Source: a virus
Taxonomy: Duplodnaviria; Heunggongvirae; Uroviricota; Caudoviricetes
Virus record (IMG/VR): IMGVR_UViG_2713896791_000024
Location: 1-7,835 of that record
Length of the DNA stretch: 7,835 nt
Strand: one strand, 5' to 3'
A program made the translations under genes and the position numbers. The notes beneath the pieces were generated by a model. It did no database searches, was not told the DNA's origin, and worked only from the letters and a program-made list of their open reading frames with translations. Shown here one piece after another: positions 546 to 6,553 of this stretch. How positions within the stretch are numbered: the first letter of the stretch is position 1; every line of letters starts with the position of its first letter.

Positions 546-1214
546 ATGGTGAAATTAATGAAAAAAAACACAGATGATGGGGCTAAAATTTACACACCAC
601 TTACCCTAAAGCTTTATGACTGGTGGGTTTTGGGAGTATCAAATCGGCTTGCATGGGGATGTCCTACAAAGGAACACCTTCTTCCACACTTTCTGGAACA
701 TTTAGGTAACAACCATCTGGATATTGGTGTTGGAACTGGGTTTTACCTTACTCACGTACCTGAGAGTAGTCTGATATCTTTAATGGATTTGAACGAAGCT
801 AGCCTGAACGCGGCATCTACAAGGGCTGGGGAATCAAAAATTAAACATAAAATTAACCATGATGTTTTTGAACCTTATCCCGCGGCGTTACATGGTCAAT
901 TTGATTCCATTTCCATGTTTTACCTTCTTCACTGCCTGCCTGGAAATATATCTACAAAAAGCTGTGTAATACGCAATGCGGCGCAGGCCTTAACTGACGA
1001 TGGAACTCTATACGGAGCCACAATTCTTGGCGATGGAGTTGTGCACAATAGCTTCGGTCAAAAACTGATGCGCATTTACAATCAGAAAGGCATCTTTTCA
1101 AACACAAAAGATTCCGAAGAAGGCTTAACACATATACTCTCAGAGCATTTCGAGAATGTTAAAACCAAGGTTCAAGGTACTGTAGTAATGTTTTCCGCTT
1201 CAGGGAAAAAATAG
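546..1214 (+). CDS. Class I SAM-dependent methyltransferase, probably small-molecule type (UbiE/COQ5-like fold), substrate unknown
   Basis: 222-aa ORF with Rossmann-fold methyltransferase motifs read from the translation: motif I LDIGVGTG, acidic post-I LMDLN, motif II FDSISMFYLLHCL, motif III LTDDGTLYGATI. N-terminal YDWW...S...W pattern resembles the UbiE-family signature. No DPPY/NPPY motif, so probably not an N6-adenine DNA methyltransferase. Start is uncertain: ATG at 546 lacks an obvious Shine-Dalgarno, ATG at 558 has GGTGA 5 nt upstream. Visibly more AT-rich than the tail genes. Family assignment is from memory, not a search. Confidence 0.7.
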   Translation: MVKLMKKNTDDGAKIYTPLTLKLYDWWVLGVSNRLAWGCPTKEHLLPHFLEHLGNNHLDIGVGTGFYLTHVPESSLISLMDLNEASLNAASTRAGESKIKHKINHDVFEPYPAALHGQFDSISMFYLLHCLPGNISTKSCVIRNAAQALTDDGTLYGATILGDGVVHNSFGQKLMRIYNQKGIFSNTKDSEEGLTHILSEHFENVKTKVQGTVVMFSASGKK

Positions 1215-1261: not shown

Positions 1262-1579
1262 AACTATTCAGATACATCACTCCCATCACATTCATTCCTC
1301 CGCATCATAGGCATATAGGCTATATCACCTTGATATTTTTCTTCTTCAGATAAAAACTGTTATCTATGTATACTTTTAAACCCAATCCGTGTAGAGTCTC
1401 TGCATAAGATAGTTTGCAGTTGCCACTTCAGCTTGCGCCATAAACCGCCTGATTTTTGCCGCCACCTGTTAGCATTCCTGTATACCTGAAACGACAATGT
1501 TTATCTACGAACTTTAAGAACACCCAGGATAAAAATTGTCAACTATATCATATATAACACATTACTAATTCGAGGCTAT

Positions 1580-1693
1580 ATGAACAGCATACTGATAATC
1601 ACTTCGCTCCTTATCATATTCAGCATTTTTAGTCATGCTCTAATAAAATTAGGGATTGGCATATCCAATAACCCAGACAAAACCGATGTATAA
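1580..1693 (+). CDS. Candidate 37-codon small hydrophobic protein (single predicted transmembrane helix) in the leader upstream of the ydfK-like gene
   Basis: ATG 1580, TAA 1691-1693; translation [41 protein letters not shown] at 1572-1575 lies 4 nt upstream of the ATG. Below the size cutoff of the supplied ORF track. AT-rich DNA readily yields Ile/Leu/Phe-rich ORFs by chance, so this is tentative. Confidence 0.3.
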
Positions 1694-1761
1694 GTCAACA
1701 TATCCTGAATCAGACATACAATATCGCAATGAAAATCAATAATATTTTAAGGAATATCTTC

Positions 1762-1995
1762 ATGAAATCAAAAGACACCCTAAAGTGGTTCCCTGCGCAG
1801 CTTCCTGAAGTAAGAATTATCCTAGGGGATGCTGTAGTGGAAGTAGCAAAACAGGGAAGACCTATCAATACCAGAACATTGCTTGATTACATTGAAGGAA
1901 ACATAAAGAAAAAGTCATGGCTGGATAACAAAGAATTATTACAAACAGCGATATCAGTTCTTAAAGACAACAAAAATTTAAATGGTAAAATGTAA
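1762..1995 (+). CDS. ydfK: YnaE/YdfK-family small protein (the cold-shock-induced small proteins encoded beside pinR/pinQ in E. coli K-12 Rac and Qin prophages)
   Basis: 77-aa product MKSKDTLKWFPAQLPEVRIILGDAVVEVAKQGRPINTRTLLDYIEGNIKKKSWLDNKELLQTAISVLKDNKNLNGKM. I chose the ATG at 1762 (AAGGAA Shine-Dalgarno at 1749-1754) over the upstream in-frame ATG at 1729. Immediately upstream of, and co-oriented with, a pin gene, as in the K-12 ydfK-pinQ and pinR-ynaE neighbourhoods. Family and gene order are recalled from memory. Confidence 0.7.
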   Translation: MKSKDTLKWFPAQLPEVRIILGDAVVEVAKQGRPINTRTLLDYIEGNIKKKSWLDNKELLQTAISVLKDNKNLNGKM

Positions 1996-3001: not shown

Positions 3002-3577
3002 CTACGGTAGGGCTGGCCATTCAATATCCGGTGCAGTTGATGTATCAACACGGTTCAGCAACACCCGATACTTTTTCCAGGCTTCCAGCAACAAGGTTTC
3101 TTCCTCCGTTGCGATCTCCAGATCCACAGCATCCTGAAGCGGCGCAATATGCTCACTGGCTACCTGCATCAGGCTGTTTTTTGTTTCTTCCGCCTCCCGG
3201 ATCCGGAACAGTTTTTCTGCTTCCGTATCCTTCACCCAGGCTGTGCCGTTCCACTTCTGATATTCCCCTCCCGGCGATAACCAGGTAACATTTTCCGGTA
3301 ACGGACCGAGTTCAGAAATAAATAACGCGTCGCCGGAAGCCACGTCATAAACCGTTTTACCCCGATGATCTTCAACGAGATGCCACGATGCCTCATCACT
3401 GTTGAAAACAGCCACGAAGCCTGCCGGAATATCTGGCGGTGCAATATCGATACTGTTTGCTGGCAGACCTGTATGAGGCGGAATATATGCGTCACCTTCA
3501 CCAATAAATTCATTAGTTCCTGCCAGCAGATTATAAATTTTTATGGTCCGTGGTTGTTCACTCATTCTGAATGCCAT
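3002..3577 (-). CDS. tfa: Tail fibre assembly protein (lambda Tfa family)
   Basis: 191-aa product beginning [41 protein letters not shown], matching lambda Tfa as I recall it over nearly its whole length. ATG at 3575-3577 overlaps the stf stop codon (3577-3579) by one nucleotide (TAATG on the minus strand), implying translational coupling. Confidence 0.93.
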
Positions 3578-6492
3578 TATGCAAGCCTCACAATGTAGTT
3601 AAATGCGATGTTTTTGACAGTGTTTTCCGCGTTACCAGCAGCGTTAACGGTGATGGTGTGTCCATGTGAGCCAATCGCAACAGAGTGCGTATGAGCACCA
3701 ATACCGACAGTATGTGCGTGAGCACCTGCAGATGCAGCTGTGCCGCTGACACTATGAGTGTGCGCTCCTGCAGCACTTGTATTCACACTGGCCGCAGACA
3801 CTACCTTATGTACTGACCCATTTTGTGACCACTGGCTGACTGCTGATGCGCCTGTGACACTATGAGTATGGTTTCCGGCACTTGCGGCTGTACCGCTCAC
3901 ACTGTGCGTATGCGCCCCGGTGTTATTCGTGGATTTAGTGCCGTAATCAAACGACGATGTGGTTTTCGTCCCCAAATCCGTACTGGATGCACTGGCGCTG
4001 TGGGTGTGCGATTTAATGCCGTCCTGTTCCTGAGACAATACGGCCCGACCACTGGCAGGTTTGCCCTTAATCGTCCAGCCACGCATATCAGGGATCACGC
4101 CTGACGGATAAGCGGTTGCAAGTTTCGGGTAAGCGGATTTGTCAAAAGTCTGCCCCTGCATCAGGGCATAACCAGACGGAACGGTATCTGATGGCCACGG
4201 GATTGGTGCGCCAGGCGGATAAAACTGCTCTGATGGTGTATAGAGTGAATAAACTGTACCGTCCGTTAACCCTTCCGGCTTATTAGCAGAATATGCTGGT
4301 GACGTATGAATAGTCACGCTGGCATTACTGGTATAATCCCATTGAATATTTACACCAGTCGCATAATTTCCGATTGCAACGTAAATATCGTAAGTATCAC
4401 CAGATGTATTGACCCAGGCAAAATTTGTAAACCCTGTCGATGTGCGCTGCCATAAAGCACCAGTAATCCCCTTCGGATTACCATTACCTGCACGCAAAAC
4501 AAGTTCAGATATACCTGCCTGTTGAGGTGACCCCACGTTAAATCCCGCGCCACCAATCAACGTAATTGAAACAACAGAACTCGCCTGTGGCATGGTTACC
4601 GTTGCTAATTTGAACCAACCAGCACCACCGCTGAATGACATTGTTGTTGAGTTAAGCGTACCAATATCTTTCGGCGTCAGTGTTATATCCGCTGAAAGCG
4701 CCTTACCATTCACCTTACGGGCAGAAGGTACCCGACCATTCGCATTATCATTAGCTGCTTTCACTGCTTTCGGTGTCGCGGCAAGCGTTTCAGATGCGCT
4801 GTTGGTTGCACTACTGAGCTGGACAATTCCTTTTTGTGCTGTCGTAGCGTCCTGAGCAGTATATTTCCCGTTAGCAAGGTCATAGGCTGCCTTTACCGAC
4901 TTTGGCGTTGCCGCCAGCATTTCAGATGTGCTGTTGGTCGCGCTGCTGAGCTGAACTATCCCTTTCTGTGCTGTCGTTGCATCCTGTGCGGTGTATTTCC
5001 CGTTAGCCAGCTCATACGCGGCCTTAACGGCTTTTGGCGTTGCCGCCAGTGACTCGGAAGTGCTGTTAGTCGCACTGCTGAGCTGTACTATCCCCTTTTT
5101 CGTCGTGCTCGCATCCTCAAGCGCCACGGCGGATGCAATATCCTCTGCCCGTTTTGCCGCTGTCTCGGCGCGCGTTGCCGCGGATTCCGCCGTACTTTTG
5201 CTCTGAGCTGCCGCCGTCGCACTGCCAGCTGCCTCTGTCGCCTTCGTGGATGCCGTCGTGGCGCTGCCCTTTGCTGCTGACGCCTGTCTGGTCGCCTCAT
5301 CTTTTGAAGCAGACGCAGATGATGCCGATGACGCCGCCGAACTGGCGGACGATGCGGCAGCCGTTTTTGAGGATTCTGCGCTGGTTTCCGACGCTTTCGC
5401 GTTCGTCTCGGATGTCTTCGCTGCGGAAGCAGACCTCGCTGCTGCGCTGGCCTGTTCAGTGGCTTCGCCAGCCTTCGTTGTGGCTGTTGAAGCGGACGAT
5501 GCGGCGCTTTCTGCCGATTTTCCGGCAGCGGTGGCACTGGCTGAGGCCTGCCCGGCACTTGTTGACGCGGCACTGGCAGACGACGCAGCCGCTGTTTTTG
5601 AGCCTGCCGCAGCTGAGGCGCTCTGTCCCGCTGCCGTCTCAGAAGACCTGGCGTTCGTCTCGGACGTTTTTGCCGCCTTCGCGGAATTTGCTGCCGCCGT
5701 TGCCGAGGAAGCTGCGCTACTGGCGCTCGAGGATGCGTTCGTTTCTGATGATTTTGCCGCCTCTTTTGAAGCCGACGCATCCCGGGCTGAGGTGGCAGCT
5801 TCTGACGCTTTCGTGGTCGCGGTGGATGCAGAAGTGGCGGCTGATTGTTGTGACGCTGCAGCATTCGTTTCTGACGTTTTCGCGGCAGCGGCACTGGTAG
5901 CTGCCGCGCTTTTTGAGGACTCTGCAGCGGCAGCACTTTTTTCCGCTTCAGTGGCCTTTGTTGATGCCGTTCCTGCGCTGGAAGACGCTGACTGAGCCGA
6001 CGAAGCGGCCTGTCCGGCTGACGTGCTGGCTGCACGTGCTGAATCTGCAGCATCAGTCGCATGGGTTGCCGCCTCACGGGCAGATGTGCCGGCATCACTG
6101 GCTGACTTCTTCGCGGCTGCCGTGTTCTGTGCCACCACGGACGCGTTACGCGCCACCTCTTCCACCATCTGTTCAAAACGGCGCAGTGCCTCCGGACGGG
6201 CATCATCCTCCGTCATGGCACCGAGAAAATCATTCAGCGTACCGGGTTGAGAATCTTCATACACGGTGATGGTCCCGGCATGTGACGGCGGGAATCCTTC
6301 CACCAACAGAATAACGCTGTACTGCCCGTACTCAACGTCCATGCTGTAACGCCCGGCTTCATCCGGATTTTCTGAGGCCAGCGTGTTCACCACCACCGTG
6401 GTGCTGTTACGTTTTGCTTTCAGCTGGATTGTGCAGTTCTGTACCGGTTTTCCTGTGCCGTCTTTCAGTACACCTGAAATCTTTACTGCCAT
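3577..6492 (-). CDS. stf: Side tail fibre protein (lambda Stf family), 971 aa
   Basis: Starts [26 protein letters not shown], matching the lambda Stf N-terminus as I recall it. Contains a long Ala/Ser/Thr-rich fibrous region, three tandem 44-aa repeats ([27 protein letters not shown]...), and a C-terminal tip with repeated His-x-His motifs. Start is placed at the ATG at 6490-6492 (GGGGTGA Shine-Dalgarno-like motif just upstream); the ORF-track extension to 6612 reads through the N-gap and the lom terminator and is an artefact. An identical start context is duplicated after the gap at 6567-6569. Confidence 0.9.
4750..5097 (-). repeat. Three tandem copies (two full, one partial) of a 132-bp unit inside stf encoding a 44-aa phage tail fibre repeat
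   Basis: The string CTGAGCTG recurs at 4814, 4946 and 5078 on the plus strand (period 132 bp). Protein repeats [44 protein letters not shown] occur three times, the last diverging after KAVKAA. Confidence 0.8.
5100..6000 (-). repeat. Low-complexity Ala/Ser/Thr-rich region of stf with degenerate internal repeats (AAKTSETNA-type)
   Basis: The translation contains several [18 protein letters not shown]-like units within a roughly 300-aa Ala/Ser/Thr-rich stretch. GCN-rich codons generate long artefactual ORFs in other frames on both strands. Confidence 0.75.
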
Positions 6493-6503
6493 ATTCACCC
6501 CAC

Positions 6504-6553
6504 NNNNNNNNNNNNNNNNNNNNNNNNNNNNNNNNNNNNNNNNNNNNNNNNNN
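6504..6553. other. Scaffold gap (50 N) flanked by a 27-bp exact duplication; probable unresolved contig overlap rather than missing sequence
   Basis: AAATCTTTACTGCCATATTCACCCCAC occurs at 6477-6503 immediately before the N-run and again at 6554-6580 immediately after. Collapsing the duplication leaves about 64 bp between the lom stop and the stf start, close to the lambda lom-stf spacing as I recall it. Confidence 0.8.

Follow-up and report, generated by a model that had tools for sequence, protein, structure and literature searches.

Type I toxins with divergent antitoxin small RNAs are represented by the pairs TisB/IstR-1, ZorO/OrzO, and ShoB/OhsC, and the proteins MgrB, SafA, and AcrZ are small inner-membrane regulators of larger membrane proteins. 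The closest described relatives of the locus considered here are the 37-aa proteins YnaM (b4744) and YnfT (b4748), encoded in the Rac and Qin prophages of Escherichia coli K-12, respectively. In strain MG1655, the genes are arranged as ynaM-ynaE-pinR-tfaR-stfR in Rac and as ynfT-ydfK-pinQ-tfaQ-stfQ in Qin. The exact 37-aa sequence is printed for both genes in Table 1 of VanOrsdel et al. (2018; PMC6001520), where the Qin copy was published under the provisional name 'YnfQ'. Our search of the literature returned no published function, localization, or phenotype for YnaM/YnfT.

Several described small proteins resemble YnaM in part. MgrB, SafA, and AcrZ share with it a length of approximately 30-50 aa, one transmembrane helix (predicted in the case of YnaM), stress-linked expression, and a gene located beside a regulatory gene; the resemblance is in architecture only. 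Other examples are provided by YnfR, YnfQ, and YnfS of the Qin prophage, which are encoded near cspI and cspF and, similar to ynaM, are short prophage ORFs adjoining cold-induced genes. They were found in the same tagging study as YnaM (PMC6001520), and YnfR is strongly cold-induced. However, the sequences of these proteins are unrelated to YnaM, and the ynaM-ydfK leader contains neither a csp-type cold box nor any similarity to the leaders of cspA, cspB, cspI, and cspF.

Identification of the ORF as ynaM/ynfT

We analyzed a stretch of viral DNA (Caudoviricetes; IMG/VR record IMGVR_UViG_2713896791_000024) of 7,835 nucleotides, hereafter called the window. An earlier note, made from the letters of this DNA without database searches, had claimed a 37-aa ORF between a methyltransferase gene and a ydfK-like gene, and the translation quoted there matches exactly the ynaM/ynfT coding sequence at 1580..1693 of the plus strand. 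The ORF starts with ATG and encodes a predicted hydrophobic helix followed by a polar C-terminal tail. The peptide is identical both to YnaM from Rac and to YnfT from Qin; at three synonymous sites separating Rac from Qin, the DNA of the ORF carries the Rac allele. Together with the 37-aa sequence, the locus shares with its K-12 counterparts the ribosome-binding site (RBS), the position 68 nt upstream of ydfK/ynaE, and the adjoining pin gene. The upstream neighbor alone is different, being here a gene for a class I SAM-dependent methyltransferase.

The peptide is well covered by the existing family collections. Pfam family PF23676 (YnaM-like) matches residues 1-37 of 37 with 96.2 bits against a cut-off of 27, NCBIfam model NF041477 (cut-off of 35) matches with 63.9 bits, and a further match is to phrog_35882. 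An exact-sequence look-up found the same peptide as UniProt entry YNAM_ECOLI and in at least 999 contigs. RefSeq/PGAP has a CDS at identical coordinates, the 'YnaM/YnfT family protein' WP_120795384.1, followed downstream by genes for 'cold shock protein YdfK', a recombinase, a tail-fiber assembly protein, and a tail fiber. Since the RefSeq CDS occupies exactly this position, standard annotation does not miss ynaM, and the statement that the gene is hidden from it proved wrong: RefSeq, the K-12 annotation, Pfam, NCBIfam, and PHROG all have the gene. The peptide is catalogued, identical to that of K-12, and annotated in RefSeq; therefore, the ORF at 1580-1693 is no hidden gene but the already known YnaM/YnfT, rediscovered here. 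The finding has no value as the discovery of a gene, YnaM/YnfT having been found and validated in 2018, described by curated families, and annotated by the NCBI pipeline.

The reading of the ORF itself holds up well. A Shine-Dalgarno-like GAGG, which the earlier note had also pointed out, can be read at 1572-1575 of the plus strand, 4 nt before the ATG, and the RBS together with the start codon (1572-1582) is invariant across all loci compared. The peptide is strongly hydrophobic (GRAVY of 0.99), its best 19-residue stretch comprising residues 4-22 (mean Kyte-Doolittle value of 2.52). The AlphaFold2 model is a single helix of residues 2-30 with a mean pLDDT of 88.7, and by both the hydropathy and this prediction the hydrophobic helix is long enough to span a membrane. 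The tail, NNPDKTDV, is polar. Thus, hydropathy, the modeled helix, and the tail agree with the single hydrophobic helix and polar tail that had been described from the sequence.

The codon usage of ynaM deserves a separate comment. Five of its nine isoleucine codons are the rare ATA (codons 4, 6, 13, 22, and 28), and CTA, TTA, and GGG codons also occur. The rare codons may reflect an AT-rich foreign origin or may slow translation.

Selection and Distribution of ynaM

The intergenic region around ynaM also holds several ORFs of 26-45 aa, and hence the length of the ynaM ORF taken alone is no better than chance. One could suppose, given these ORFs of similar length and the lack of homologs beyond a very narrow group, that ynaM is simply a chance reading frame in an AT-rich leader. 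To characterize the variation, approximately 100 related loci were collected, 88 of them usable for the ynaM ORF. The ORF is intact in all 88, and the peptide has three variants (canonical, S18G, and H19Y). Ten sites of the gene are variable; eight of these are at the third codon position, and all eight are silent. Ten changes are synonymous and two non-synonymous, the test being based on just 12 substitutions among sequences that are all at least 92% identical. The excess of third-position changes has a Fisher p-value of 0.002, and the normalized ratio of non-synonymous to synonymous changes is 0.057 for ynaM and 0.098 for ydfK. Third positions of ynaM vary approximately as the non-coding leader does (about 22% of sites), and first and second positions almost never.

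Seven other short ORFs of the same region served as controls. Each of them encodes 8-16 different peptides, and in some copies five of the seven are disrupted by a stop or a frameshift or have lost the start codon; the two intact control ORFs overlap the ynaM ORF. The comparison of substitutions in homologous loci, which the earlier note had proposed as a check, yields a coding signature (ten synonymous versus two non-synonymous changes, with the ORF intact in 88 of 88 loci). As far as sequence comparison can tell, ynaM is confirmed as a genuine coding gene under purifying selection. With this third-position pattern, with ynaM intact in every usable locus while the control ORFs are broken, and with the protein seen in K-12 on published immunoblots, a chance ORF can be given practically no credence; the immunoblots and the substitution pattern already refute it.

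Two frameshifted loci, L013 and L015, were considered as a refuting case and rejected as such: indels of 1-2 bases are scattered equally through ydfK. These loci are error-prone assemblies or wholly decayed copies, are uninformative, and were excluded from the usable set. The protein collection also holds rare truncated or frameshifted YnaM variants.

Many E. coli chromosomes carry sequence that is 100% identical to 1216-2000. Of 5426 complete E. coli genomes, 2810 contain some version of this stretch, a single genome holding up to three copies, and versions also occur in 11 temperate phages that have been sequenced. When 1.84 billion cluster representatives were searched exhaustively with HMMER, only four YnaM matches emerged, all at least 81% identical, and a sensitive DNA search of E. 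coli genomes gave no matches between approximately 65% and 92% identity. In a scan of one genome per species, relatives of YdfK were found in Escherichia and Shigella only, besides contamination-like assemblies; a few YdfK-bearing assemblies labeled as unrelated organisms look like contamination. The YnaM family is a narrow orphan of lambdoid prophages of the E. coli group. Its importance is that ynaM is carried by about half of complete E. coli genomes, is under purifying selection, and is inseparable from the cold-shock gene ydfK.

Evidence for Synthesis of the Peptide

In LB cultures, VanOrsdel et al. (2018; PMC6001520) detected YnaM and YnfT, the latter named 'YnfQ' at the time, as chromosomally SPA-tagged proteins, and they noted that both genes had been unrecognized positives of a tetracycline ribosome-profiling screen. 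YnaM-SPA exceeds most newly found small proteins in abundance (Weaver et al., bioRxiv 10.1101/511675), and the tagged protein is readily seen in both growing and stationary cells (PMC6001520; bioRxiv 10.1101/511675). Profiling with retapamulin or Onc112 gave no ribosome density at the start codon of YnaM (Weaver et al., bioRxiv 10.1101/511675). The two K-12 copies, ynaM and ynfT, do not differ between approximately positions -52 and +22 relative to the ATG. Because of this identity, a natural explanation for the missing density is multi-mapping of footprints, which were probably discarded. At the RNA level, one RNA-seq comparison shows ynfT up 5.7-fold and ydfK up 5.3-fold, with csp genes rising too.

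For ribosome profiling and tagging, which the earlier note had named as ways to check the ORF, published positives therefore exist for the identical K-12 genes. Its central proposal, a small single-helix peptide of membrane type that is really translated, is supported by SPA tagging in K-12, by tetracycline profiling, and by purifying selection. One further report was set aside: in a paper on fluoride, ynaM stands beside ldrB/ldrC merely in a table of down-regulated uncharacterized genes.

Structure of the ynaM-ydfK Module

The left edge of the module is marked by a G+C-rich hairpin at 1222-1255 followed by TTTTT at 1256-1260 of the plus strand, both stem and T-run being readable in the sequence. 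This hairpin (1222-1260) terminates the upstream methyltransferase gene. Homology between the window, the Qin and Rac prophages of K-12, and the loci in the dinI context starts exactly at 1222-1255, and to the left of it the sequence is unrelated in each of the four upstream contexts. The upstream neighbor is the methyltransferase gene in the window and the prophage end in K-12, whereas phage 2H10 and related prophages carry a dinI-like gene there. A simple terminator scan of 1150-2350, which returned no terminator-like site, missed the hairpin, probably because its loop is 13 nt.

Downstream of the hairpin, the promoter scan found a sigma-70 promoter-like site TTCAGA-18 nt-TATACT at 1345..1374 of the plus strand (9 of 12 matches). 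It lies in a conserved island (1336-1395) with 5 variable sites, the flanking leader being approximately 20-22% variable; within 1345-1380 there are 2 variable sites, both inside the promoter spacer. The putative 5' leader of the ynaM-ydfK transcript (1381..1571) is the most variable part of the module, with 42 of 191 sites varying. The variable stretch is 1396-1535, and conservation resumes at about 1536 and continues through ynaM, the spacer, and ydfK. The spacer that separates ynaM from ydfK (1694..1761) includes the ydfK Shine-Dalgarno sequence AAGGA (1749-1753); it is 68 nt long in 87 of 87 loci, with pin located downstream. In another promoter-like site (TCAACA-16-TACAAT, 1695-1722), neither hexamer is invariant, positions 1695, 1697, and 1720 being variable. 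Because the island 1336-1395 is conserved while this alternative promoter varies in both hexamers, we infer a single transcript that starts near 1381 from the promoter at 1345-1374 and covers ynaM and ydfK. The joint rise of ynfT and ydfK in RNA-seq is consistent with one such transcript, as are earlier reports of short Hfq-bound RNAs from the leaders of ydfK and ynaE. A search of the conserved module for the promoter strings that genomic SELEX had assigned to ydfK and ynaE gave no match.

The module also contains an AT-rich 19-nt direct repeat with 16 of 19 matches, a level reached in 1 of 300 dinucleotide shuffles. Copy 1 (GATAAAAACTGTTATCTAT) occupies 1349..1367 of the plus strand, inside the promoter spacer, and copy 2 (GATAAAAATTGTCAACTAT) occupies 1528..1546, 34 nt upstream of the ynaM ATG. 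The second copy is identical in five aligned contexts, and 2 of its 19 positions vary in the wider set of loci. In the 2H10 clade, position 1357 is T, making the two copies more alike. The repeat might be a regulator-binding site.

The same repeat bears on another interpretation, also raised in the earlier note, in which ynaM is a type I toxin, that is, a membrane-damaging peptide restrained by an antisense or divergent small RNA. Through the repeat, an RNA that began near 1360 on the minus strand would be complementary to the ynaM leader, and at 1223-1360 the minus strand has a weak match to CssrB (RF02799, a Shigella sRNA family). The size of YnaM, its single hydrophobic helix, the long leader, and the location in a prophage all have parallels in systems of the TisB/IstR-1 type, whose small hydrophobic single-helix peptides are encoded on mobile or accessory elements. 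However, the CssrB match reaches 28.5 bits where the gathering score is 76, and no counterpart of it was found in related loci at E <= 0.01; being sub-threshold and resting mainly on the terminator hairpin, it was rejected. The Rfam search of both strands of the leader region detected no sRNA family at threshold. Promoter-like sites are no more common on either strand than in shuffled sequences, and those of the minus strand do not lie where an antitoxin RNA would require them. Thus, neither an antisense small RNA nor a suitably located opposite-strand promoter, both named earlier as things to look for, was found.

The protein itself also differs from the known toxins. Scans against Pfam and NCBIfam matched the YnaM family alone and no toxin family, with no homology to Hok/Gef, Ldr, TisB, Ibs, ShoB, Zor, or DinQ. 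Unlike the type I systems, ynaM has no detected antitoxin RNA and no similarity to them in sequence, its mRNA is without exceptional structure, and the chromosomally tagged protein, in contrast to tightly repressed type I toxins, is readily detected in ordinary growth. In view of the missing antisense or divergent sRNA, the lack of similarity to toxins, and the accumulation of the tagged protein in LB, we consider a type I toxin very unlikely.

A different role could be assigned to the ORF as a leader peptide. According to earlier transcriptome studies, the 5' leaders of ydfK and ynaE yield abundant short, prematurely ended, Hfq-bound RNAs, and the 5' UTR of these genes was proposed to be riboswitch-like. 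This 'ydfK/ynaE 5' UTR' contains the translated gene ynaM. Its location there, invariably 68 nt upstream of ydfK, would suit a mainly regulatory upstream ORF whose translation controls ydfK, either by preventing Rho-dependent or other premature termination or by opening the ydfK ribosome-binding site, with the peptide as a by-product. The five rare ATA codons among the 37 could make the rate of ynaM translation sensitive to conditions.

Nevertheless, the whole amino-acid sequence of YnaM is constrained (10 synonymous versus 2 non-synonymous changes), and simple leader peptides need no such constraint. The stretch separating ynaM from ydfK contains neither a terminator-like site nor a structure of unusual stability, ydfK has its own Shine-Dalgarno sequence, and tagged YnaM accumulates to comparatively high levels. 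The predicted fold of the leader is no more stable than that of shuffled controls (z = 0.12 for 1380-1800 and z = 0.37 for 1560-1790), and Rfam contains no family matching the leader; the sequence diversity of the loci is too low for a covariation test of leader structure. A purely regulatory upstream ORF, which the earlier note had offered as an option, is weakened by the selection on amino acids and by the lack of a terminator or stable structure before ydfK, and we regard it as improbable. A regulatory side effect of ynaM translation, for example on Rho-dependent termination, could still occur. A candidate pairing of CUCCUU (1607-1612) with the ydfK Shine-Dalgarno sequence was tried and discarded, as position 1609 varies (C/A) among haplotypes.

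The Partner Gene ydfK

Since ynaM is inseparable from ydfK, we also examined YdfK. The gene (1762..1995, plus strand), a paralog of ynaE, encodes a 77-aa cold-shock-induced protein, which RefSeq names simply 'cold shock protein YdfK', and it is intact in 96 of 96 loci. Both YdfK and YnaE proteins have been seen after refrigeration by top-down mass spectrometry. A Pfam scan assigned YdfK to no family, and in NCBIfam the YcgZ model matched it weakly, below threshold (E = 0.0079). The single-sequence AlphaFold2 model of YdfK is a three-helix bundle (pLDDT of 74). Among solved structures, the one most similar to this model is that of E. coli YmgB/AriR (2OXL), with a probability of 1.00, a target-normalized TM-score of 0.81, and an rmsd of 2.1 Å over 59 columns; the next structure is approximately 70-fold worse in E-value. 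In a BLASTP comparison, YdfK and K-12 YcgZ are 26% identical over 54 residues (E = 7e-5), and the core common to both is W/YF...LG-AV-E--K-GR.

YcgZ, YmgA, and AriR are labeled in RefSeq as putative connectors of two-component systems. Based on the NCBIfam, 2OXL, and BLASTP matches, YdfK is probably a distant prophage-borne relative of these connectors; the literature search yielded no paper linking YdfK to YcgZ/AriR. No comparable small hydrophobic ORF is present upstream of the chromosomal ycgZ operon. PADLOC reported no defense-system match for either the YnaM peptide or YdfK. These results suggest that the membrane peptide YnaM and the connector-like YdfK may act together.

Proposed Role of the Module

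The gene ynaM/ynfT, which encodes a known, experimentally detected 37-aa protein, is very probably the first gene of a compact two-gene prophage cargo module, ynaM-ydfK/ynaE. The module begins at an insulating terminator hairpin, has its own promoter-like island, and adjoins the pin invertase at the tail-fiber end of a lambdoid prophage, forming a mobile gene pair in prophages of E. coli and its closest relatives. The two genes would be co-transcribed from the promoter at 1345-1374, rising together in cold and related stresses. YnaM is predicted to insert into the inner membrane as a single helix, and the peptide itself would be the functional product. It may act with or alongside YdfK, a probable small regulator of the YcgZ/AriR type. 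YnaM is thus most likely a protein of the inner membrane with a single helix, expressed jointly with YdfK from a self-contained prophage cargo module that responds to cold.

A more ambitious scenario, which we view as a long shot, is that prophages give the pair to the host and that the membrane peptide and the YcgZ/AriR-like connector, turned on by cold, retune a host system of envelope signaling. If this were the case, a candidate target would be the Rcs phosphorelay, on which the chromosomal YcgZ/YmgA/AriR act, and the module would be regulated through the conserved 19-nt repeat. A function would then be available for two 'y' genes carried by approximately half of E. coli genomes. The facts collected for YnaM and YdfK provide a concrete starting hypothesis for work on the pair.

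Other Features of the Window

The methyltransferase gene (546..1214) encodes a class I SAM-dependent enzyme that matches Pfam Methyltransf_12 and related families and phrog_2132 (518 bits). It is variable cargo upstream of ynaM-ydfK, present in 10 of the loci examined, and shows a very weak match to the PADLOC 'mad2' defense model (E = 0.00068). Further upstream, the minus strand carries a truncated remnant of a tail-fiber assembly (tfa) gene at 184-489, and an intact tfa gene is located at 3002-3577, also on the minus strand. The remnant and the 3' end of the intact gene form a direct repeat (251-396 versus 3024-3169, 82% identity). The block of methyltransferase, ynaM, ydfK, and pin thus has a tfa 3' end on each side, a layout suggestive of an earlier recombination or insertion event here.

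The 3' part of the tail-fiber assembly genes also matches the candidate RNA gene IS009 of Rfam (RF02111) with approximately 220 bits. These matches are found at 4821-5019 in locus L001, 3345-3543 in L002, and 1255-1453 in L003 (approximately 3036-3234 of the window, minus strand). A weaker copy of IS009 in the tfa remnant, at 2048-2251 of L001 (approximately 263-466 of the window), falls short of the gathering score (107.6 versus 117 bits).

A run of 50 N occupies 6504-6553, with the same 27 bases (aaatctttactgccatattcaccccac) on either side. Apparently, scaffolding placed this gap between two contigs with overlapping ends; it falls at the start of the tail-fiber gene, and therefore the 1011-aa ORF that crosses it is an artifact at its N-terminus. 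Internal tandem repeats are typical of side tail fibers, and the tail-fiber gene of the window contains three units of 132 nt and four units of 40 nt (3691-3922 and 4736-5131), the 40-nt units encoding a His-rich motif of the GAHTHS type.
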